Virus record (IMG/VR): IMGVR_UViG_3300014257_000015
Coordinates: 1-64,000 of that record
DNA: 64,000 nt
Strand: one strand, 5' to 3'
Origin: a virus
Below, piece after piece: positions 36,559 to 54,371 of this stretch. Under the pieces are notes generated by a model. The model did no database searches and was not told where the DNA came from. It saw nothing but the letters and a program-made list of their open reading frames with translations. The first letter of the stretch is position 1; every line of letters begins with the position of its first letter. A program made the position numbers and the translations under genes.

Positions 36559-37036
36559 TTTGATGCCGCGTGTCGTGAGTTTCCCTCTGTTGGATGTGTA
36601 TTCAAAGTTGGCACGTGGTTTGATCACTGTGGAAGAGTTTGCGAATGAAACACGAGGCGACGGGTTAAAGCCTGTGGTGAAAGAAGTTGGAGTTTTGGAA
36701 ATGAGCAAAAGAGAAGACACCAGACAAATTGACATTGACGGAATCGTTGTGGAGAGGATCATTGATGTAATAGCCAGGGCGATTTCCACAGATAGAAAGG
36801 CTGTTGAAATACTTTTGTCTGTTCGGGTGCCTTGCTCCGAAGATTTGACGCAAGATCCATCCATTCAGACAGAGCGCGATGCGGACGGCGATCCAATTTT
36901 GACTGTAAAAGGGTTGCTGGCCGGGATAGCCGGTTGCCACGAAGGCGGGGAACCGAAGTTGTCTTTTGTGTACAGGACTGAAGACGAAAAACACAGACCA
37001 TCATTTCTACTCGGGGTGGAGTCGGTGCGACAGTGA
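36548..37036 (+). CDS. Hypothetical protein
   Basis: Overlaps both neighbours; start uncertain. Confidence 0.55.
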   Translation: MGNDLMPRVVSFPLLDVYSKLARGLITVEEFANETRGDGLKPVVKEVGVLEMSKREDTRQIDIDGIVVERIIDVIARAISTDRKAVEILLSVRVPCSEDLTQDPSIQTERDADGDPILTVKGLLAGIAGCHEGGEPKLSFVYRTEDEKHRPSFLLGVESVRQ

Positions 37037-37716
37037 GCAAAGTCAGATTGATTTTGGATGACGCCATCGCGGGCATCCAGCGGCTCGAAGATTCTAGTGT
37101 GGATTTGGTGCTGACAGATCCGCCGTATGAGTCGTTGGAAAAGTGGAGGGCGACGGGAACCACAACACGATTGCGCCATAGCAAGATGAGCTCGAATGAT
37201 TGGTTTGAAATCTTTCCGAACGAAAGATTCAATGGGCTGTTCGCCGAATGTTTTCGTGTGATGAAAACGGGTTCGCATTTATACATGTTCTGTGACGATG
37301 AAACCAGCGATATTGCGAAGGCAGAGATGGTGTCTGCTGGTTTTTGTGTTTGGAAACGGCTGGTGTGGGATAAGAGGGTGATTAGCACGGGCTATCACTA
37401 CCGAAACCAGCATGAGTTCATTTTGTTCGCAGAAAAGGGACACCGCAATCTGAATGACCGATCGATCCCGTCGATTTTGCGGTGCAAACGCATCGCGAAA
37501 GGGTACCCGGCTGAAAAGCCGGTTGAGCTTCAAAACATCCTCGTGTCACAGTCCGCTTCCGAGGGCGATGTGTTGCTGGATCCGTTTTGTGGTTCTGCGT
37601 CCAGCGGCGAAGCGGCGTTGAATTTTGGGCTAGACTATATTGGCGTGGATATCAGCGAGAAGGCATTGAAGATCGCTGTGAAGAGGCTAAAAGGCAAGGG
37701 CGCACGTGTCATTTAA
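37033..37716 (+). CDS. DNA methyltransferase, N6-A/N4-C, beta class
   Basis: LVLTDPPY before P.EKP…LDPFCGS. Confidence 0.9.
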   Translation: MSKVRLILDDAIAGIQRLEDSSVDLVLTDPPYESLEKWRATGTTTRLRHSKMSSNDWFEIFPNERFNGLFAECFRVMKTGSHLYMFCDDETSDIAKAEMVSAGFCVWKRLVWDKRVISTGYHYRNQHEFILFAEKGHRNLNDRSIPSILRCKRIAKGYPAEKPVELQNILVSQSASEGDVLLDPFCGSASSGEAALNFGLDYIGVDISEKALKIAVKRLKGKGARVI

Positions 37717-44670: not shown

Positions 44671-44724
44671 GGGGCGAGCGATTGGATTCTTGGGCCTTGG
44701 CCGGTTCTCTCCAACGCTCGCCCC
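44671..44724 (+). promoter_or_regulatory. Long GC-rich hairpin upstream of the nucleotide-modification operon
   Basis: GGGGCGAGCG-a-TTGGA…TCCAA-CGCTCGCCCC; no U tract. Confidence 0.55.
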
Positions 44725-44742: not shown

Positions 44743-45705
44743 ATGAGAAAACGTGTTGTGATAGTTGGGGGTGGAGTCTCAGGGCTCATAGCATCGTATG
44801 TGTTCAGCGGAATCCCCGGTGTAGAAACAAGAGTATTTGAAGAGAAAACAACCGGCGGCGAATTTCTAGCTGGCGGCTTGAAGTACATCCACCACACAGA
44901 AGCAATGGTGGATATGTTTGATGAGCTAGGCCTGTGTCACTCAAATTTCATGGTGAATGGTGGCATATTGTTGAGCGACGTTGTTCAGCCGTACCCAAAG
45001 TGCTTCCAAGACATGGCACCCGAACGAGCCGCCCGCATCCAGGATGACCACTGGAGGAAGACGCGCCGATCAGAGCCGGGTTCTGATTCCAAGAAAGCAA
45101 TGAATGATCCGGCGAGCACGAAGCCAAGGCAAGCCCTTCGCTGTGACTTTGTGGATATGATCAATGAGCTATCAGATTGCGCAGCGATCACCAACGCAGC
45201 CGTAGTTGAGATCAACCAAAATGATTTGCTGACCAGCCAGAAAGAACGGGTGCTGTTTGATTTCGCGGTGGTGACTTTGCCGCTGTGGGTGATTAGGGAA
45301 TTGGTGAAGTGGTATGTGCCGCACGGTATGGCTATGGCCCTCAACGTGGCAAAGGTGAATGTTCGCGGGGATCGCTTTGCGCGCTGGGATTACGTCTACA
45401 CGCCCTACACGCCGTCCAATTGTGTCCATCGATTTTCACCGGTGGCAGGCGGATATTCGGTTGAGACGAATGGTGAATTGAATCTTGGTGAAATCGAGTC
45501 TGACTTGAATTTCCTTTGGCCTGAAGGTTGGGCAATGATGGAACTGAAAGAGGGGCTAAAGGGCCACCTGCTTTCATTGGACACTAAGCCTGATTGGCCG
45601 CGTAACATAGCACCAATCGGAAGGTTTGCAAAATGGGACAGCCGGGCAACCATCGATGTAGCGTTGGAAGACTCGATAGCGTTAGCCAAGAGGTGGCTTG
45701 GATGA
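44743..45705 (+). CDS. FAD-dependent oxidoreductase (UDP-galactopyranose mutase / amine-oxidase-like fold)
   Basis: VVIVGGGVSGL Rossmann motif; GG; C-terminal IGRFAKW. Confidence 0.75.
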   Translation: MRKRVVIVGGGVSGLIASYVFSGIPGVETRVFEEKTTGGEFLAGGLKYIHHTEAMVDMFDELGLCHSNFMVNGGILLSDVVQPYPKCFQDMAPERAARIQDDHWRKTRRSEPGSDSKKAMNDPASTKPRQALRCDFVDMINELSDCAAITNAAVVEINQNDLLTSQKERVLFDFAVVTLPLWVIRELVKWYVPHGMAMALNVAKVNVRGDRFARWDYVYTPYTPSNCVHRFSPVAGGYSVETNGELNLGEIESDLNFLWPEGWAMMELKEGLKGHLLSLDTKPDWPRNIAPIGRFAKWDSRATIDVALEDSIALAKRWLG

Positions 45706-46649
45706 ATCTTTGGTCAGAGATGTGGGAAAGGCAGAAGAAGCAACAGGAGCACTTCAACCTCGACCCCAAAGCGATGTCACCAATCGTGAAGGCTGGTGTT
45801 GCGAAGGATTTGACGCTGGGATTGCTTGAAGAGGCGGGGGAGCTTTCGAGGGCTGTGGCTCGATTCAAGGCACACCTTTTGAAAGACAGGCCTGTGGACA
45901 AGATCAATGTCTGCGAAGCTTCGGTTGATGTGCTGAAATATCTGATAGCGATTGCGCAATTATATGGCGTCTCGTCTGAAGAGATGTTCAACACTTTCAT
46001 GCGAAAAAGCGACGTTGTTGATGACAAGGCGCGTTGCGAACGGGTGGAACTGGAGCGCCACACCAAGCTGATTGTGAGTGATCTGGATGGTTGCATTGCA
46101 GACCTATCTTCGTGGCAGGACGAAATGGATCGACAGCGCGGGAACGCTCCGATGAATGATGCCACATTGGCGATGCTCGAAAAATTGAAAGAGGAGTTTT
46201 ACAGATGCGGCGGGTTTTTGAATTTGCCGCCGATACCTGGAGCAATCGAAGCAACCAAGAAGATACGTGAAGCAGGATACAAACTGGCCATCATCACAGC
46301 CAGGCCAGACTGGCAATACAAAAGAGTGTACGCTGATACAATCCAGTGGCTTCAGAAACACGACATACAATATGATTTGATTTTGTTTCAGAAGGACAAG
46401 GCAGAAGCCGTGGTGGATCACATCTTTCCGGCGCGCCCTCTGTGTTTCGTTGAAGATAGGAGTAAACACGCCATCGAGGTCGCTAGCATTGGTGTGCAAG
46501 TGTTGTTTCTGACTTCTGGCAAAAGCGAATTGGCGCCTCACCCTTTGATTCAGCGAGTTCAAGGCTGGGGTGAAATCGTCGAGTACATCAATGCAACACA
46601 AGATGGGAGAAGTGAATATGGGACACCCACATTTGATGGGAACAGTTGA
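45702..46649 (+). CDS. MazG/all-alpha dNTP pyrophosphatase fused to a HAD 5'(3')-nucleotidase
   Basis: EEAGEL…EASVD..KY; DLDG..AD, IITAR, FVED. Confidence 0.8.
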   Translation: MNLWSEMWERQKKQQEHFNLDPKAMSPIVKAGVAKDLTLGLLEEAGELSRAVARFKAHLLKDRPVDKINVCEASVDVLKYLIAIAQLYGVSSEEMFNTFMRKSDVVDDKARCERVELERHTKLIVSDLDGCIADLSSWQDEMDRQRGNAPMNDATLAMLEKLKEEFYRCGGFLNLPPIPGAIEATKKIREAGYKLAIITARPDWQYKRVYADTIQWLQKHDIQYDLILFQKDKAEAVVDHIFPARPLCFVEDRSKHAIEVASIGVQVLFLTSGKSELAPHPLIQRVQGWGEIVEYINATQDGRSEYGTPTFDGNS

Positions 46650-47784
46650 GTACAGGCCGGTAACGTTTAGCAGCGGGAATGGCCCTTGGCTGTATGTTTA
46701 TCATGATGGAGAAACAAAGACAGATTATCTGGACTTTTTCTGTGATGTCGGAACGTCCAGCCTTGGTTACGGCGGGAAAGAACAACAGGATGTCATTTCC
46801 AGGATGTATCATTTGCCTGCTCACGCGCCGAACATATTTGGCTTCGATGAGCGAGACCGAGCGGCACGGCGCCTTTGTGAAATGACGCAAATGGATCGCG
46901 TGTTCTTTTGCAATAGCGGAGCAGAATCAGTTGAGGCGGCAATCAAACTGGCGCGGCTTTGGTCGTACAAGAAAGGCTGTGGCGCTGATCACATCTACAG
47001 TTATGTCGGCGGATTCCATGGGCGGACATACGGGGCGTTGTCCGCCGGTGACGGCGCGCCATATCACTACGAAGGTTTCGGCAAGATGTTGGACGGGGTG
47101 TTTCACTTCAAAGAAGCATGGGAAATCACAGACCCCGAAACTTGCGCCATCATTCTCGCCCCCTGCTTCGGCAACAACGACATTCGAGAGTACCCGGATG
47201 GTTGGTTGAAAGATCTCAGAGAATTCTGTGACAACAACGGGATTCTACTGATCTTTGATGAGGTGCAAACAGGCTCGGGGCGCACCGGCATGATGACGTA
47301 CGCGCAACGATGCGGCGTGAAGCCAGACATTATGACGTTGGCGAAGGGCATTGGGATGGGTGCCCCTGTAGGTGCCATGTTGGCGTCGGCTGACATCGCC
47401 GAAGTGTTCACGCCAGGAACGCATTTCAGCACATTCGGCGGGAATCCGTTGTCTTGTGCCTTCGTGAATGGGATGTTGGACTGGTTGGAACGTCCTGGAA
47501 ATCTGGAGTCTGTGAATCGAAAGGGCGAGTTCATAAAAGAAACATTGCAACGATTCGGATGGGCAAAGAACATTCGCGGCCCAGGAATGCTGATTGGATT
47601 TGATATCGACATTGACACATCTGAATTCGCGGCCCGCTGCTTAGAAAATCAGTTGCTCATCGGGGCCTTTAGAAAGGGGCCTGGGGCTGTAAAAATCAGC
47701 CCGCCGCTGAACATCGAAAAAGAAGACATCATCAAGGGATTGACCATATTGGATGAATCCTACAAGGAGCTGATCAATGGCTGA
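46618..47784 (+). CDS. Class-III PLP aminotransferase (ArgD/OAT-like, divergent)
   Basis: NSGAESVEAAIK, FHGRT, DEVQTG.GRTG, TLAKG (PLP Lys), STFGGNPL. Confidence 0.9.
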   Translation: MGHPHLMGTVEYRPVTFSSGNGPWLYVYHDGETKTDYLDFFCDVGTSSLGYGGKEQQDVISRMYHLPAHAPNIFGFDERDRAARRLCEMTQMDRVFFCNSGAESVEAAIKLARLWSYKKGCGADHIYSYVGGFHGRTYGALSAGDGAPYHYEGFGKMLDGVFHFKEAWEITDPETCAIILAPCFGNNDIREYPDGWLKDLREFCDNNGILLIFDEVQTGSGRTGMMTYAQRCGVKPDIMTLAKGIGMGAPVGAMLASADIAEVFTPGTHFSTFGGNPLSCAFVNGMLDWLERPGNLESVNRKGEFIKETLQRFGWAKNIRGPGMLIGFDIDIDTSEFAARCLENQLLIGAFRKGPGAVKISPPLNIEKEDIIKGLTILDESYKELING

Positions 47785-48724
47785 GCCGAAAGTCACATTG
47801 CTGACTTGGACGAAAGACCCGTTGGAAACTGTGTACTCTGTATGGTGGCAGTCGAAGAACGAAAAACCGTTGATGACACCGGATGAGGTGAAAGAAAATG
47901 TCCCGCCGTCTGAGGTCGAAGAGCTATTCAAAGCGGTAATAGCACAACGAATCCCTGTTGGAGAACACCTGGATTTCGTGTTTGTTATGGAGAACGTTTC
48001 TGTGTCTTGGCGTGAGCAGGCCGTTCGCCACCGCATCGGGGTGAAAGTAGGCGGCGAACGTTTAGGGGTGGACGTAATACCGAACCTGGCTGATTCAAGC
48101 TGGTGGTCACAATCCATGCGCATCCAGAATATGGGAAGTTTCTTCAGCAACGGCGCATACAGGATGCCAAAATCATTGGATGCTCACCCGGAAGCTAAAG
48201 CTGTTTTTTGCGACATCATGTGTGACATCGAGGCTGCGTACAATAATCTGATTGACATGGGTGTGCCGATGGAAGACGCCAGAGAGGTTATCCCACTCGG
48301 CGCGCAACATCGGATCAGCTGGAAGCTTAACATAGGCGCTCTCCAGCACATCATGGAAAAGAGAGGTTGCTGGATACTGCAACTTGGAACGTGGGGGCCG
48401 ATCATTACCGGGATGGTGGATGAGTTGGCCAACAAGGTTCACCCTGTGTTTCGCGAATTGGTGACGCCGCCTTGCATCCGAGGGGATAAATTCAACTCGT
48501 GTGTGTTCATGGAAGAGTGTCGCCGCCGTTTGACAGGTGATGATGAATTGCCACCGTGCCCACTCCACTACAACTACCACGTTCTGCCTGAATCGCAACG
48601 TGGAATGATTCCGCTGTTGGTCAAGAAATTGGAAATCCCGATGAAGTCGGAGATGATGCGACGGTCGGAAGATTATGCGAATTTTTGGGGCCGAGATCCG
48701 TTCACAGGTGAAAAAATTGTGTGA
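47777..48724 (+). CDS. ThyX-like flavin-dependent thymidylate synthase (divergent)
   Basis: EQAVRHR…SWWSQSMR; EDAREVIP; H..EKRGC. Confidence 0.8.
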   Translation: MAEPKVTLLTWTKDPLETVYSVWWQSKNEKPLMTPDEVKENVPPSEVEELFKAVIAQRIPVGEHLDFVFVMENVSVSWREQAVRHRIGVKVGGERLGVDVIPNLADSSWWSQSMRIQNMGSFFSNGAYRMPKSLDAHPEAKAVFCDIMCDIEAAYNNLIDMGVPMEDAREVIPLGAQHRISWKLNIGALQHIMEKRGCWILQLGTWGPIITGMVDELANKVHPVFRELVTPPCIRGDKFNSCVFMEECRRRLTGDDELPPCPLHYNYHVLPESQRGMIPLLVKKLEIPMKSEMMRRSEDYANFWGRDPFTGEKIV

Positions 48725-49301
48725 CAAGATAATCGTGTTGGACGGGGTGAATGGGACAGGGAAATCAACGAGCGCAAAAGTTCTGCGCGAATTGACAGGG
48801 TGGCCCATCATACGGGCGTTTCGTGATGACTCTGATTCACATCTAGGATACAACGCGCCTATGGAGGGAGAACTCAAAAAACTCGGCGTTCCTGTGAACA
48901 CATACGTTGATGACTTGTACGTTGCTGATTTTTTGCGCGCAACACGGCGAGGAGCGATATTGGATAGATCGATGCCATCGGCATTGGCATATCCGATGAT
49001 GCGCGGCGAAGAGATAACACCAAAGACAGCAAAAAAATTGGTTGTTGTTTGGGAGCAGATTCTGCGCGCTGCGAAGATACCTGTGGTTTATGTTTGGATG
49101 CAAGCATCGCACGAAGTGGTGAAAGAGCGTTGTGTTGGACGGTGGCATCCAAACAAAGCACAATACGCCAAATTGGAATCGACTTTCAAGAGAGTTTTCG
49201 TGACGTTGTCGCTGTGCAAAAGAAGAGTGGTGACCACAGAGCTTAGTGAAAACGAAACGATCAAAACCGTTCGCCAGGTGGTGGATGATGCCGACGATTG
49301 A
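48717..49301 (+). CDS. dNMP (thymidylate-like) kinase
   Basis: LDGVNGTGKST P-loop; ILDRSMPS..AY; TTG start after AGGTGA. Confidence 0.8.
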   Translation: MCDKIIVLDGVNGTGKSTSAKVLRELTGWPIIRAFRDDSDSHLGYNAPMEGELKKLGVPVNTYVDDLYVADFLRATRRGAILDRSMPSALAYPMMRGEEITPKTAKKLVVVWEQILRAAKIPVVYVWMQASHEVVKERCVGRWHPNKAQYAKLESTFKRVFVTLSLCKRRVVTTELSENETIKTVRQVVDDADD

Positions 49302-49620
49302 TGAAATCAGAGTTTGGTTGAGTGGCCAAGAGATCGAAGGATTGCCCGCTTTGCGTGAGCGTGAGCGTGAGCCAGAAGCGAAACATCCGCCGAAGGCAAT
49401 GAAAACGCCTGCCGATATGCGCAACCAAGGGAGATATCGGCTGCACCGTGATGACTCCGGTCACGTCATCGATGCCACTTTGTATTTTGGAAAGTACAAT
49501 GGGTTCTGCCTAAGTAAACTTTCAACCAATAGAGAAGGGAAGGACTACCTGTCATGGATGTTGAAACAGGACTTCCCTGGTGAATTGGTGGAGTTGATCA
49601 CCAGTATGGGATGGGCGTGA
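49285..49620 (+). CDS. Small protein with FGKY.G (ExoX C-terminal-like) motif
   Basis: LYFGKYNG…DYLSWML. Confidence 0.6.
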   Translation: MMPTIDEIRVWLSGQEIEGLPALREREREPEAKHPPKAMKTPADMRNQGRYRLHRDDSGHVIDATLYFGKYNGFCLSKLSTNREGKDYLSWMLKQDFPGELVELITSMGWA

Positions 49621-52600
49621 TGGAAGACTTTGTAGGGTTGCACAACCATTCGGATGCTAGCCAACTAGACGGTGCTGGGAAAATATCCGAATACATCAAG
49701 GCCGTAGTCGAACGCAAGGCGCCTTCAATCGCTTTCACCGAACACGGGACAATGCGCGGGTACCAGACGCAATATGATCAATGCAAAGAACACAACATCA
49801 AGCCAATTTATGGGATTGAATTCTATGTGGCCAATGACATGCGTCGAAAGGGCCTAACCGAAGACGAGCGCGCGGACATCACGAAAGGCAAACCTCGAAG
49901 CGAGCACAAAGATGCCATCAAGAAGTATGAAGAGCAACACGGCATCCGAGACAGATGGCATTTGACGTGCTGGGCGAAGAACGCAGAGGGAATGCGGAAT
50001 ATGATGCGCTTGGCGTCGCTTGCATACACCGAGGGGTTCTACTACAAGCCGCGCATTGACTTGAACGAACTGTACAAGTACAAAGAGGGGTTGGTGGTGG
50101 CGACGGGATGTTGTTCCAGCGTCATCTATGACAGGGCCGTGTTGGGGAAAAAGAAGCTTGCATTAGAAATTGCCGATGAGATGCGTGAACAATTTGGGGA
50201 AGATTTGTGGATTGAGATACAACCGCACGCAATCGAAGAGCAGGTGATCTCCAACCAGTTGGCACTGGAATTGAAGGATAGGTGGGGGAAGAAGGCGCGC
50301 CTGCTTGCAACGCAAGACGCACATTATGTCAGGCCGGAAGATTGGGAAACGCATGAAGTGATGCTCTGTATCGGAACCAATGATGTGATGAGCAACCCCG
50401 AGCGTTTTCGTTTCACCGGGAATGATTTTCATTTCAAAACCCGAAAGGAAATGTTTGCGAAGTTCAGATCAACACACGCTTACTTGACCAGAGAGCAAGT
50501 CAAAGAATCTTTGGACAACACGTTGGTGTTCATGGACACAATATCTGATGGCCTGGTTACCATCGATAAAGACAAGTGTCTCATGCCACCAATACCGGTT
50601 CCTGAGAAGTATGACGGCAATGAGTTCGCATACTTGAAGGATTTGTGTTTGCGCGGTTGGGCATGGCGTGACATACCGGCCCGCGCCACTCTGTTGTCAA
50701 AGCGCGAGGGCGGCGACGAAGCAGAATGGCTGAAACGATACGTGGCAAGGTTGAAAAGAGAACTGACAGCAATCAAAAGCCAAAAGTTTGTTTCATATTT
50801 CCTTCTTGTTCACGATTTATACAATTGGGTGCGCCAGCAGGAAATCATGTGTGGGCCTGGACGAGGCTCAGCGGCGGGTTCGCTCGTTGCATACCTGACC
50901 GGCATCACATCGGTTGATCCGATAGAGCACAATCTGTTGTTCGAACGATTCATAAGCCCAACGCGTGTCGACCAGCCCGATATTGATATGGACTTTGAGG
51001 ATCGGCGCCGACAAGAGATCATCGAGTATCTGCGAAACAAATACGGCAATGATAAGGTGTGTCAGATTGCCACCGTAGGCAAGCTTTCGGGGAAGGCTGT
51101 AATCAGAGACATATCGCGTGTTCTTGAAGTGCCGTATGCAGCAGTAAACCAAGTCACCAATTCCATCATCGAAAGAAGCAGCGGCGACGAGCGGGCCAGC
51201 CAGACGGTTGAGGACTCTTTCAAAGAATTCAAGGTGTGTCGCGAATTCAACGCCAAATACCCGGATGTTCTGAGATATGCGAAGAAGCTCGAAGGAATGG
51301 CCAAGACGCTTGGAATACACGCAGCAGGCGTCGTGACTTCTCCTGAACCGTTGATGAATCTTGTCCCATTGGAGACGAGAAAGCATGATGGCCGTGACGT
51401 TGTGGTGAGCGCCATCGATATGTACGGGGTGGCAGCGTGTGGGTTGCTGAAATTGGACGTTCTTGGGCTGCGAACGCTGAGTGTCATTCGTGAATGTCTA
51501 GAAGCAGTTGAACAACACACTGGTGAAAAGATCGACCTCGAACGCATTGATTTGAATTTGAAAGACGTTCTTCAAGGATTCACAGATCACGATTATTGTG
51601 GCGTGTTTCAGTATGATTCCCCGGGTGCCGACAAGATTTGCACAGGCGTTGAGTTCAAACACTTCGAGGACATCGCTGCCATGACAGCGTTGAATCGACC
51701 GGGCACCGCGCGAAGCGGCCTAGCCACGCAATATGTGGCACGAAAGCGCAACCCGAAATTGGTTGAAAAGGCATCGTTTCACCCAGCGGTGAGTGAAATC
51801 ACGAAAGACACATTGGGAATCATCGTGTATCAAGAGCACGTGATGCGTATTTTCACCGACATAGCCGGGTTTGCCCCAGCAACGGCGGACAGCTTGCGCA
51901 AGAAAATAGCCAAAAAATTTGGCGATGAGACGATTGGAAAAGAACGCGAGAATTTCATTAAGGGTGCGATGGAAAATTGGGGTGACCGAGGGATGACCAA
52001 AGAGATCGCAGGAAAGATAATGGATGCGATCACGTTCTTTGGATGTATACCTGGTGAATCGTTGGTTTTAGTGGTCGAGGGAAGTGATGAAGACTTGTGC
52101 GCATTGCGAGAGGAAAGTGTTGGCAAGGGGATTGTGCTCAATACACTACCAGAGGGAATACAGGAAGGAAAGAACGGTGATCGGGAATCCTGTGAGTTCA
52201 GAGCACAACAAGATAGGGGTGCTTGGGCGCGGGTGGAAGTCAGCGCCTGGGGCGAGGGTCATTGCGTCGAACAAGTTGCAATCCAAGAAGATAACAGGGG
52301 CATTAAATCCGTCTTGGAAGGGCGGACACATCAAAAACTTCAAACTAGCAAGGAACAGGTTGTTGAAGGAAGAGAAGGGATGTTGTCGTTGCGGCACTTC
52401 GTTGATCAAGGGATCAGGGCCGAATCAAAAGTCATTTCACATCCACCACAAGAATCGAAACAAAGCGGACAACCGAGAAGAGAACTTGGAAGTGCTGTGT
52501 CAAAGTTGCCACAGCAAAGAACACACGAAAGAAAAAATTGCTGGGCGACTTGGAAAGAAATCGAAACGCTAAAGGTTGGTGATTGGATAGTGTCTTTTGA

Positions 52601-54371
52601 TGACGACATTCGCCCCGAGCTAAATAGAGTGAAAAGAATAGAGTGCACAGGGGTGAAGCCTGTCCGCAGGATGACACTCGAACAAGGCGAAATTTGGGCG
52701 ACCGGATCGCATTGGTGGATGAATAGCACAGGGGAATATATAGAGACAAAGGATTGCACGCCTGGTACAGAATTGCGTGTTGGTGATTCGATTTTCAAGG
52801 TTCTTGGTAATCGAAAAGATGGGCGATTGAAGACTTGGGACTTGGAGTGCGAATTCGAACCTAGCAACTATGCCGTCAGATTATTCAACAGCGATTCGTG
52901 TAATTACTTGATAAGCCATAATAGTTATGGATTCAACAAGTCGCATGCCACCGCATATGGAATCATCGCGTATTGGGAAATGTTCTTGAAAATACGCCAC
53001 CCGATCGAATTCTATTGGGCGCTATTGAAGAACGAACCTGACCGAATACGAATCCAACAGATCGCTAAAGATGCTAAAAAACATGGCATAGAATTGTTGC
53101 CGCCGTCGGTGGTGAATAGCGGTAAGCATTTCACAATAGACAGAGCAAATAATGCCATTCGTGGTTCGCTCGTCGACATCAAGGGCGTAGGTGATGCTGC
53201 GTCTGAATCAATCATGGTCGCCCAACCATACAAGGACTTCGGTGACTTGATTCAACGCGTGGACCGCCGAAAAGTACACAAGGGTGTCATTGTGGCATTG
53301 GCGAAGGCCGGGGCGTTAGATGACGTGGTGCCGAATCCTAAGTGGCTGATAGAAAACATCGAAGATTTTTGGACAGAGTTGGGGAAGAAGGGGTGGACAG
53401 AGAAAACAGAAAGATTGTTGCGAGATTCGGCTGATGCTCCGCAGTTCACCACCGAAGAGAGGCAGGTTGTGGCCTCGAAGGTTAGTCCACTCGCATTCGG
53501 GAAACATCCGCTCGATGCGTATGCGAATTTCATGGAACGTAGTGTGAAGGTTCCCATCGCGGCAATGTCTGATGAAGACTTTTTCAAAGACAATGACAAT
53601 CAAGGCGTATTCATCGCTGGCGTCGTTGTTGAGGTGAAGTACAATCAAATTGGAGATTTCAACACAGGTGAGCTTCCCAGTGAGTTGGAAAGGAAACAGA
53701 TGTTCTGGGGCCGCCGTTACGCCAATGTTAATGTCGAAGATCTTGGCGGGAAACAAAATAGGATCAAAGTGGATTTTGACATCTTTGATGATTATCGAGA
53801 TGTGGTTGATTCTGGAATAGGAACGCCTGTTGTTCTTCATGCTTTTGTGAACGCGAGGTTTGAGAATTTACGTTGTCATTTCATGATCAATCTGGAAGAG
53901 TACAGGCTAGCAGTCGAAGCAGGACAAGAGTTGACAGTGTGGCAAAGCATAGTCGCTGGTCGCCATCCAGCCAAAGAATATGAATGGAAAGATCCGTCAA
54001 AGTTGATCAAATACAAGACCCCAGAGGGCGAAGAGCGCGAGGTGAAAAGGCGTTCCAATGCAATCAGGAACAAAGCATTTTGGGATCGCGTATCACCTTC
54101 GTTTGTTGGCGTTGTCACGCACGTTCGGCCAAAATATGACAAGAATGGAAACCGGATGGCATTCTTGGGATTGCTGGACGGTGGTTCGCGATTCATCAGC
54201 GTGATAGCATTCGCATCCAGTTGGACAAAAGAAGTGCGACGTGTTTTGAAACCCGGGGCGTTGGTGAAAATAGAATTGGACTCCAAAAGAGACAAACGCA
54301 GTTGGTCATATTTCTACAACGGCGGAAAACTCAGGGTTCTGAGGTCAGCGCCATCAACCACATCACCATAG
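49611..54371 (+). CDS. dnaE: DNA polymerase III alpha subunit, intein-containing
   Basis: PHP domain (HNHS..S.LDG, TEHG, GIE, DAH); GRGSAAGS; PDIDMDF; HAAG; K.D.LGL; YQE; YGFNKSHA; OB folds. Confidence 0.96.
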   Translation: MGVMEDFVGLHNHSDASQLDGAGKISEYIKAVVERKAPSIAFTEHGTMRGYQTQYDQCKEHNIKPIYGIEFYVANDMRRKGLTEDERADITKGKPRSEHKDAIKKYEEQHGIRDRWHLTCWAKNAEGMRNMMRLASLAYTEGFYYKPRIDLNELYKYKEGLVVATGCCSSVIYDRAVLGKKKLALEIADEMREQFGEDLWIEIQPHAIEEQVISNQLALELKDRWGKKARLLATQDAHYVRPEDWETHEVMLCIGTNDVMSNPERFRFTGNDFHFKTRKEMFAKFRSTHAYLTREQVKESLDNTLVFMDTISDGLVTIDKDKCLMPPIPVPEKYDGNEFAYLKDLCLRGWAWRDIPARATLLSKREGGDEAEWLKRYVARLKRELTAIKSQKFVSYFLLVHDLYNWVRQQEIMCGPGRGSAAGSLVAYLTGITSVDPIEHNLLFERFISPTRVDQPDIDMDFEDRRRQEIIEYLRNKYGNDKVCQIATVGKLSGKAVIRDISRVLEVPYAAVNQVTNSIIERSSGDERASQTVEDSFKEFKVCREFNAKYPDVLRYAKKLEGMAKTLGIHAAGVVTSPEPLMNLVPLETRKHDGRDVVVSAIDMYGVAACGLLKLDVLGLRTLSVIRECLEAVEQHTGEKIDLERIDLNLKDVLQGFTDHDYCGVFQYDSPGADKICTGVEFKHFEDIAAMTALNRPGTARSGLATQYVARKRNPKLVEKASFHPAVSEITKDTLGIIVYQEHVMRIFTDIAGFAPATADSLRKKIAKKFGDETIGKERENFIKGAMENWGDRGMTKEIAGKIMDAITFFGCIPGESLVLVVEGSDEDLCALREESVGKGIVLNTLPEGIQEGKNGDRESCEFRAQQDRGAWARVEVSAWGEGHCVEQVAIQEDNRGIKSVLEGRTHQKLQTSKEQVVEGREGMLSLRHFVDQGIRAESKVISHPPQESKQSGQPRRELGSAVSKLPQQRTHERKNCWATWKEIETLKVGDWIVSFDDDIRPELNRVKRIECTGVKPVRRMTLEQGEIWATGSHWWMNSTGEYIETKDCTPGTELRVGDSIFKVLGNRKDGRLKTWDLECEFEPSNYAVRLFNSDSCNYLISHNSYGFNKSHATAYGIIAYWEMFLKIRHPIEFYWALLKNEPDRIRIQQIAKDAKKHGIELLPPSVVNSGKHFTIDRANNAIRGSLVDIKGVGDAASESIMVAQPYKDFGDLIQRVDRRKVHKGVIVALAKAGALDDVVPNPKWLIENIEDFWTELGKKGWTEKTERLLRDSADAPQFTTEERQVVASKVSPLAFGKHPLDAYANFMERSVKVPIAAMSDEDFFKDNDNQGVFIAGVVVEVKYNQIGDFNTGELPSELERKQMFWGRRYANVNVEDLGGKQNRIKVDFDIFDDYRDVVDSGIGTPVVLHAFVNARFENLRCHFMINLEEYRLAVEAGQELTVWQSIVAGRHPAKEYEWKDPSKLIKYKTPEGEEREVKRRSNAIRNKAFWDRVSPSFVGVVTHVRPKYDKNGNRMAFLGLLDGGSRFISVIAFASSWTKEVRRVLKPGALVKIELDSKRDKRSWSYFYNGGKLRVLRSAPSTTSP
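52044..52922 (+). mobile_element. Intein in DnaE (293 aa, precursor residues 812-1104)
   Basis: FFG|CIPGESLV (block A); IETLKVGD; ATGSH (block B TxxH); TWDLEC (block F); ISHN|S (block G); removal restores FFGSYGFNKSH. Confidence 0.93.
52084..52572 (+). CDS. HNH homing endonuclease nested in the intein in the +1 frame
   Basis: C..C…ARGLC..HY; NPSWKGG; CCRC…HIHHKNRNKADNREENLEVLCQSCHSKEH; GAGG RBS at 52077 before GTG 52084 / ATG 52087. Confidence 0.9.
   Translation: MMKTCAHCERKVLARGLCSIHYQREYRKERTVIGNPVSSEHNKIGVLGRGWKSAPGARVIASNKLQSKKITGALNPSWKGGHIKNFKLARNRLLKEEKGCCRCGTSLIKGSGPNQKSFHIHHKNRNKADNREENLEVLCQSCHSKEHTKEKIAGRLGKKSKR

Follow-up and report, generated by a model that had tools for sequence, protein, structure and literature searches.

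Unusual pyrimidines enter phage DNA either before or after replication. In pre-replicative base replacement, as described for 5-hydroxymethylcytosine (hmC) in T4, 5-hydroxymethyluracil (hmU) in SPO1 and SP8, and the 5-hydroxy-deoxycytidine monophosphate (5-hydroxy-dCMP) synthase and deoxynucleoside monophosphate (dNMP) kinase of RB69 and DLP3, a C5-transferring enzyme and a dedicated kinase are clustered with an enzyme that destroys pyrimidine deoxynucleoside triphosphates (dNTPs) or dNMPs, a dCMP deaminase and the phage's own polymerase; a thymidylate-synthase homologue and its cognate dNMP kinase suffice for incorporation of a new base (PMC13326640). In post-replicative hypermodification, described for phages M6, ViI, PaMx11, PhiW-14 and SH-Ab 15599 (PMC8989533, PMC13458397), flavin and pyridoxal phosphate (PLP) enzymes and combinatorial tailoring genes lead to thymidines with an amine on the C5 methyl carbon, and 5-aminomethyl-deoxyuridine (5-aminomethyl-dU) arises naturally as an intermediate in phage DNA through the action of the flavin adenine dinucleotide (FAD) lyase PaMx11 gp47 (PMC8989533). 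All characterised routes to amine-bearing phage thymidines are post-replicative and need 5-HMUDK and an amino-acid:DNA transferase. Related chemistry occurs in the antibiotic gene cluster for pseudouridimycin, where the flavin oxidase SapB and the class-III transaminase SapH turn the CH2OH of a pyrimidine nucleoside into CHO and then CH2NH2 (PMC10127198). Here we analyse a five-gene operon at positions 44743-49301 of a 64,000-nucleotide window of the viral record IMGVR_UViG_3300014257_000015, which encodes a 320-residue flavoprotein (FAD320), a MazG-like pyrophosphatase fused to an NT5C-type nucleotidase, a class-III aminotransferase, a flavin-dependent thymidylate synthase (ThyX) and a P-loop kinase, and which runs straight into a small open reading frame (ORF) and then dnaE.

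Like the pre-replicative clusters, the module brings together a C5-transferring enzyme, a dedicated kinase, a nucleotide-destroying enzyme, a dCMP deaminase and a polymerase. In contrast to those clusters, the C5 enzyme is of the ThyX type rather than the ThyA type, and FAD320 and the class-III aminotransferase have no counterpart there. With the post-replicative pathways it has in common flavin and PLP enzymes, combinatorial tailoring genes in relatives and likely the product class, whereas the PLP enzyme of those pathways is a decarboxylase and that of the module a transaminase. The logic of SapB and SapH is the same, although SapB is a GMC oxidoreductase and FAD320 has the fold of UDP-galactopyranose mutase (UGM), protoporphyrinogen oxidase and amine oxidases and lies in a phage replication operon. 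Literature searches found no published description of the five-gene set. The reading that we rank first, at a probability of roughly 0.35, is that the module converts a CH2-X group derived from deoxyuridine or deoxythymidine monophosphate (dUMP or dTMP) into CH2-NH2 ahead of replication, giving an aminomethyl-type dU nucleotide.

Conservation of the five genes upstream of dnaE

Profile matches and predicted folds bear out the five enzymes named in a preliminary description of the locus, all of them encoded on the plus strand by overlapping genes, with the small ORF and dnaE directly behind them as that description had it (Table 1). Alignment with relatives and Shine-Dalgarno-like sequences revise three starts to 45702 (ATG), 46618 (ATG) and ~48717 (TTG), which leaves overlaps of 4, 32, 8 and 8 bases at the junctions, and the five genes are probably translationally coupled. 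An 88-nt gap holding a GC-rich hairpin separates the operon from the upstream gene. The hairpin, not called in a scan for consensus terminators, probably separates one transcription unit from the next.

A scan of viral contigs for relatives yielded 34 loci, 27 of them distinct. All five genes are found at the same place in 18 of the 27, with identities down to 24-50%, and the gene-neighbourhood co-occurrence that had been proposed as a check is thus present. Recurrence of this set, in the same order, at 18 distinct loci puts the arrangement far beyond chance. In 16 distinct loci the five genes were detected by tblastn, between a sigma-like and a conserved unknown gene on one side and dnaE on the other; in L022 and L030 the flavoprotein in that place is divergent and came to light only through profile comparison (hhalign probabilities of 80% and 96%, respectively). 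Two loci, L008 and L029, are cut by contig ends, and L026 has only ThyX and an aminotransferase, with adjoining ORFs unrelated to FAD320 or the kinase. The trees of ThyX, FAD320 and the kinase are correlated (Pearson 0.77, 0.67 and 0.50). That the five genes are inherited together, as a single unit tied to the polymerase gene, is well supported by these comparisons.

Inspection of the relatives also reveals genes that come and go around this unit. Methyltransferase-like ORFs, a sulfotransferase and a UDP-sulfoquinovose synthase-like gene are inserted in or next to the module in individual loci (Table 1), and L017 carries two copies of the aminotransferase gene. Combinatorial inserts of this kind (methyltransferase-like, sulfotransferase, second aminotransferase) are typical of modification or tailoring clusters. 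The aminotransferase gene stands before or after that of ThyX depending on the locus, and the enzyme falls into two deep types, with or without an insert of ~25 residues, that are scattered over the phage tree; some aminotransferase is always present.

The window covers positions 1 to 64,000 of a viral record that is complete at 105,429 bp and is bounded by direct terminal repeats. Genes for a tail sheath, a baseplate and a tape measure protein identify a myophage, which encodes its own replisome of DnaB-like and primase-like proteins, a DnaE-type polymerase with a putative intein, RecA, SbcCD-like proteins and a 5'-3' exonuclease, and which also has CobS/CobT-like genes. On the sequence comparisons made here, the phage has no close cultured relative: among 50,697 phage records, zero matches were obtained with the operon DNA (blastn) or with FAD320 (tblastn), and identity to isolate proteins in these records is at most 29% for ThyX and at most ~35% for DnaE.

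FAD320 and the aminotransferase

FAD320 matches the Pfam and NCBIfam libraries only over its Rossmann motif (Thi4, E 8e-5; protoporphyrinogen oxidase, E 3e-4), with no match to the GLF or Amino_oxidase families of Pfam. The predicted structure, with a predicted local distance difference test score (pLDDT) of 92, is that of a two-domain FAD enzyme. Its best structural match is 3ukk, a eukaryote-type UGM (Z 26.7, root-mean-square deviation (rmsd) 3.1, 314 residues), followed by protoporphyrinogen oxidase (Z 23.6), bacterial UGM (Z 20-21) and amine or amino-acid oxidases (Z 20), and in the protein atlas it lies nearest to Amino_oxidase clusters. FAD320 has the three-domain FAD fold in common with UGM and protoporphyrinogen oxidase and carries a C-terminal GRFAxWDxRxT motif; it differs from them in its much smaller size (320 residues vs 390-510) and in having no recognisable sequence family. 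A renalase-like role in NAD(P)H repair, raised by Foldseek, was dropped, renalase being absent from the 50 best matches, the lowest of which has Z 20.3.

The FAD320 family comprises 179 homologues, each of ~320 residues, all unnamed and all on the same kind of contig, and no detectable sequence similarity links FAD320 to the cultured-phage proteins of the 50,697 records, PaMx11 gp47 included. These observations support a new flavoprotein family that appears restricted to these phages; its confinement to such contigs leaves it without a housekeeping function that could have been co-opted. Invariant residues include H103, K106, T107, R108, M120, N121, Y219, H275, R294, W298 and R301, and the basic ones among them (H103, K106, R108, H275, R294 and R301) hint at an anionic substrate.

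The structural match to UGM, a fold that binds UDP- or dTDP-hexose, speaks for the idea that FAD320 and the aminotransferase turn the C6 hydroxyl of a UDP-hexose into an amine, yielding an amino sugar that would glycosylate DNA or a surface structure. Amination at C6' of the neomycin type is the model for such a change of hydroxyl to amine. The UDP-sulfoquinovose synthase-like insert of L007 would be another C6-modifying UDP-glucose enzyme in the same setting, but it occurs in this one locus only, and no glycosyltransferase or sugar-nucleotidyltransferase was found by Pfam among the larger ORFs scanned. Of the schemes that name a different amination substrate, we consider this one highly improbable and place it last.

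The aminotransferase is a clear member of Aminotran_3 (PF00202; 252 bits, E 9.5e-75), in which the PLP lysine K259, D230 and the arginine of FHGR152T are all invariant. Its closest sequence relative is ArgD of Aquifex aeolicus (2eh6; E 3e-101 for the family profile), with which it shares the PLP lysine, the aspartate and the FHGRT arginine. In contrast to ArgD, which has a C-terminal Arg, phage aminotransferases of the present type have Lys, and no arginine pathway lies nearby. Curated NCBIfam cut-offs for ArgD are missed (PRK01278, 309 vs 372 bits; TIGR00707, 287 vs 410 bits), the scores for the remaining ArgD and AstC models also fall below each cut-off, and the ArgD motif EPxQGEGG with its gating Glu has become APxxGNNxV in 20 of 20 phage sequences. 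Membership of ArgD was rejected on the missed cut-offs, the lost motif and the lack of an arginine-pathway context. The latter had been remarked on in the preliminary description for the window and extends further: no AA_kinase match occurs anywhere in the 105-kb genome, and no arg gene turned up among the ORFs scanned. The enzyme also matches putrescine aminotransferase (E 1e-50), and its matches in the 50,697 phage records are host-like contamination only. Together, these features support an ArgD-derived enzyme with a predicted change in its substrate pocket rather than a bona fide ArgD. It is well supported by these family comparisons that neither FAD320 nor the aminotransferase was taken over from housekeeping metabolism.

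ThyX, the nucleotidase fusion and the kinase

ThyX scores well above the cut-off for Thy1 (69.1 vs 24.8 bits, E 5.6e-19) and below that for TIGR02170 (48.7 vs 87.9 bits). Its predicted fold matches T. maritima ThyX (1o26) with Z 13.2 and rmsd 3.3 over 197 residues, and the best 47 entries are all ThyX or PolB. The signature RHRxxSxxxxSxR is split, with R84-H85-R86 and S113-x-R115 invariant and 20-25 extra residues between them, and the final Tyr is replaced by Ile or Leu; the inserted residues 87-111 have pLDDT below 50. R169 and R196, which correspond to the dUMP-activating R147 and R174 of T. maritima in an alignment to 1kq4, are both invariant. Four cysteines (C198, C233, C242 and C261) are conserved throughout the subfamily, three of them inside a C-terminal extension, and may form a metal site. 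The family numbers 407 metagenomic homologues, many on contigs of 90-116 kb. A link of this odd subfamily to the module was considered and rejected, since it is also found alone, without the other four genes, in the unrelated phages L025, L028 and L031. In L031, a PolA-type phage, ThyX adjoins a nucleoside 2-deoxyribosyltransferase-like gene, a YfbR-like HD 5'-deoxynucleotidase and a DUF6378 gene (L031:7748-9704), which is a different nucleotide-pool context.

The ThyX insertion is pertinent to a second way of reaching the same product. Here the methylene that ThyX transfers to dUMP would be trapped by an amine such as glycine, and FAD320 would act as an oxidative C-N lyase to release 5-aminomethyl-dUMP; we regard this as improbable, and no less so the accompanying proposal that the aminotransferase would convert the 2-oxo compound set free in this step back to its amine, glyoxylate to glycine for instance. 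Amine trapping of an exocyclic methylene has been proposed for MnmEG, and MnmC(o) and PaMx11 gp47 are models for the oxidative C-N lyase. The FAD320 superfamily oxidises C-N bonds, the conserved signature-loop insertion and C-terminal extension of ThyX could form an extra binding site, and the methyltransferase-like neighbours in relatives are reminiscent of MnmC with its methyltransferase domain. The same chemistry has been discussed for flavin-dependent uracil methylases (PMC8989533). Nevertheless, release of an amine adduct is not known for any ThyX, FAD320 lacks the similarity to gp47 noted above, and mere recycling would hardly require that the aminotransferase be so strictly retained.

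The fusion protein combines an NT5C domain (32.4 bits vs cut-off 24.8) with HAD motif I DLDGCIAD and a MazG-like domain that scores just below its cut-off (21.0 vs 22 bits), with weak matches to the small MazG-like chains 2q73 and YpjD. Among solved chains it lies closest to the 5'(3')-deoxyribonucleotidases of cytosol and mitochondria (cdN and mdN), and the fusion is retained in relatives. By homology of its domains, it is predicted to degrade pyrimidine dNTPs as far as the nucleoside. Because the NT5C domain is nearest to deoxyribonucleotidases specific for dUMP and dTMP, and because ThyX keeps its uracil, phosphate and flavin contacts, uracil and thymine deoxynucleotides are well supported as the predicted substrates of the module. 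By homology, the dCMP deaminase encoded 1.5 kb beyond the window and ThyX are predicted to feed dUMP into C5 one-carbon transfer; neither a dUTPase nor a ribonucleotide reductase was found in the genome.

The kinase belongs to the thymidylate kinase (TMPK)/deoxynucleoside kinase superfamily. It exceeds the cut-off for dNK (29 vs 27 bits) and matches PHROG 761, 'thymidylate kinase' (E 6e-14), and its family profile finds YorR of SPbeta (2axp, E 4e-11), Aquifex TMPK (E 6e-8) and deoxynucleoside kinase (E 7e-6). Two motifs, GxNGxGKS and LDRSxPSAxAYG, are evident, and the P-loop, D97-R98-S and the lid arginine R152 are invariant; TIGR00041 and PF02223 match in the P-loop region only. No other Thymidylate_kin-like match occurs in the genome.

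Both the fusion and the kinase have a direct place in a further scheme, in which amination takes place on the sugar. The fusion would yield a nucleoside, FAD320 would oxidise the 5'-hydroxyl to an aldehyde, the aminotransferase would produce 5'-amino-5'-deoxythymidine and the kinase would phosphorylate the amine. This is the sole scheme that gives the nucleotidase a role on the pathway, the best Pfam match of the kinase is the deoxynucleoside kinase family, and the sequence of phosphatase, flavin oxidase and class-III transaminase is established for 5'-aminonucleosides in pseudouridimycin biosynthesis (PMC10127198). On the other side, the LDRSxPSAxAYG motif and the full-length solved matches make the kinase look more TMPK-like, and the conserved basic residues of FAD320 may hint at a phosphorylated substrate. 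We judge the scheme quite unlikely, below the amine adduct and above the nucleotide sugar, and grade likewise the two fates suggested for its product, a small-molecule effector or a precursor of N-P-linked DNA. The specific version in which 5'-aminated thymidine is phosphorylated on nitrogen and DnaE builds DNA with N-P (phosphoramidate) backbone links appears least likely of all, barely to be expected: the phage's own ligase and exonucleases would need to handle N-P links, and a natural N-P backbone is not known. Were it true, the DNA backbone would be modified in a way so far without natural precedent.

The module's product is presumably used by DnaE, a protein of 1586 residues. Its domain gap at residues 789-1159 (window 51978-53085), which sets the finger domain ~370 residues apart from the HHH domain, is consistent with an intein. 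The small ORF ahead of dnaE occurs in many, not all, relatives, and a longer homologue in L016 matches ExoX-like_C; it probably encodes a replisome accessory protein and no pathway enzyme.

Candidate product and the state of the phage DNA

To return to the pre-replicative amination of a dUMP- or dTMP-derived nucleotide, FAD320 and the aminotransferase would act jointly to carry the CH2-X carbon to CH2-NH2, most likely in a 5-aminomethyl-dU-type nucleotide. Either a 5-hydroxymethyl group would be oxidised to the aldehyde and then transaminated, or an amine adduct would undergo oxidative C-N cleavage, after which the carbonyl product would fall to the transaminase. The kinase would then phosphorylate the modified dNMP, and host nucleoside diphosphate kinase and the phage DnaE would place the product in DNA, while the fusion would lower the competing pool of deoxythymidine and deoxyuridine triphosphates (dTTP and dUTP). 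In some relatives, the inserted methyltransferase-like and sulfotransferase genes would decorate the product. Candidate amination sites across all schemes are base C5 (via the aldehyde or the amine adduct), sugar C5' and hexose C6.

A published thymidine hypermodification route was rejected for this phage. The complete genome has zero matches to PF18723 (5-HMUDK) and to the ThyA-type family PF00303, the latter of which is matched by 10 of 14 control genomes; zero matches were likewise obtained for PF18724 (AADT, aGPT-Pplase2), a family for which the control genomes are also without a match. With no match to the known post-replicative hypermodification genes, a pre-replicative route is the natural reading.

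Several observations weigh against it. ThyX keeps every canonical dUMP and flavin residue needed for ordinary dTMP synthesis, its subfamily also serves phages that lack the module, and we know of no ThyX-type hydroxymethylase or aminomethylase. The fold family of FAD320 is not a classical alcohol-oxidase family, the aminotransferase tree is uncorrelated with those of ThyX, FAD320 and the kinase (0.1-0.24), and four of the five genes belong to the usual nucleotide-metabolism repertoire of phages. Moreover, restriction-type palindromes are strongly avoided across the whole genome (CTCGAG, 0 vs 23 expected; CCGCGG, 0 vs 10; TCCGGA, 0 vs 6; GCCGGC, 6 vs 24; CATG and GATC, z < -12), and together with two DNA methylases, of the N6/N4 and the C5 cytosine type, this avoidance indicates that the phage DNA seems still exposed to restriction, which argues against a full protective replacement of T. 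The proposal of an amine-bearing nucleotide in the preliminary description is supported in part: the conserved and co-inherited module beside the polymerase gene, the non-ArgD aminotransferase, the phage-restricted flavoprotein and the lack of matches to known hypermodification genes speak for it, whereas the fold of FAD320 and the signs of restriction pressure do not. A hydroxymethyl or other non-methyl product of ThyX is unsupported, given the retained residues and the occurrence of the subfamily outside the module.

Several of these observations fit an ordinary supply of dTTP combined with sanitation of the nucleotide pool. The dCMP deaminase, ThyX and the kinase would lead to dTDP, the MazG/NT5C fusion would clean the pool, and FAD320 and the aminotransferase would serve some other need of infection; we take this to be the main rival, only a little less probable than the reading ranked first. 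For the two latter enzymes, options under this explanation are the remodelling of polyamines (as a polyamine-oxidase-like and a putrescine-aminotransferase-like enzyme) and amino-acid or one-carbon metabolism merely co-transcribed with the nucleotide genes. Canonical catalytic residues in a ThyX that also stands alone, the commonness of MazG, NT5C, ThyX and TMPK-like genes in phages, the nearness of FAD320 to Amino_oxidase clusters, the putrescine aminotransferase match, and palindrome avoidance with DNA methylases, which fit unmodified DNA, are all in keeping with this explanation. It leaves unexplained, however, why FAD320 and the aminotransferase are retained in a nucleotide operon across 18 divergent loci and why tailoring genes are inserted into the module, and a fusion that destroys dUMP and dTMP beside a dTMP synthase would amount to a futile cycle if T were wanted.

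Table 1 Features of the operon, of the rest of the phage genome and of related loci. Positions are those of the window unless marked otherwise.
Feature	Position	Strand	Evidence
FAD320, 320-aa flavoprotein	44743-45705	+	N-terminal GxGxxG Rossmann motif; predicted fold
MazG-like NTP pyrophosphatase + NT5C-type 5'(3')-deoxyribonucleotidase fusion	45702-46649 (longest ORF from 45633)	+	ATG after GAGG
Class-III (fold type I, subgroup II) PLP aminotransferase	46618-47784 (longest ORF from 46570)	+	Aminotran_3
ThyX, flavin-dependent thymidylate synthase, distinct subfamily	47777-48724	+	Thy1 PF02511
P-loop kinase, TMPK/deoxynucleoside-kinase superfamily	48717-49301 (longest ORF from 48675)	+	dNK; PHROG 761
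Small ORF	49285-49620 (alternative start 49246)	+	Weak ExoX-like C-terminal / QSregVF_b motif, PF12843 E 3e-4, below cut-off
DnaE-type DNA polymerase III alpha, 1586 aa	49611-54371	+	PHP, DNA_pol3_alpha, finger, HHH_6
GC-rich hairpin	44671-44724	+	~14-15 bp stem, 23-nt loop, no T-run; read from sequence
DNA methylase, N6/N4 type	37033-37716		E 7e-28
dCMP deaminase, ComEB-type	genome 65518-65964 (L039:1492-1938), 1.5 kb beyond window end		PF00383 E 2e-28
LacI-family periplasmic-binding-type sugar-binding protein	genome 77598-78422 (L036:13598-14422)		Peripla_BP_3 E 4e-21
DNA methylase, C5 cytosine type	genome 78946-80010 (L036:14946-16010)		E 1e-69
Methyltransferase-like ORF, ~260 aa	L003:9180-9983, L010:11136-11888, L002:6430-7200, L005:9192-10004		Motif ELFGGSGW, no family match
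L008 inserts	L008:2-178, L008:180-1070		Methyltransferase-like ORF + class-I S-adenosylmethionine (SAM) methyltransferase
UDP-sulfoquinovose synthase-like	L007:10969-12180, between ThyX and aminotransferase		NF041015 488 bits vs cut-off 575
Sulfotransferase	L022:12488-13261, directly after kinase		Sulfotransfer_3 E 6e-8

In this module, which a whole clade of uncultured phages of ~100 kb retains, ThyX and a transaminase are joined by a flavoprotein from a family without members elsewhere. If a modified dNTP is indeed made, this would represent a new biosynthetic logic for DNA hypermodification, in which ThyX-type enzymes and transaminases would appear for the first time. In that case these phages would also offer an enzyme source for making amino-functionalised DNA.

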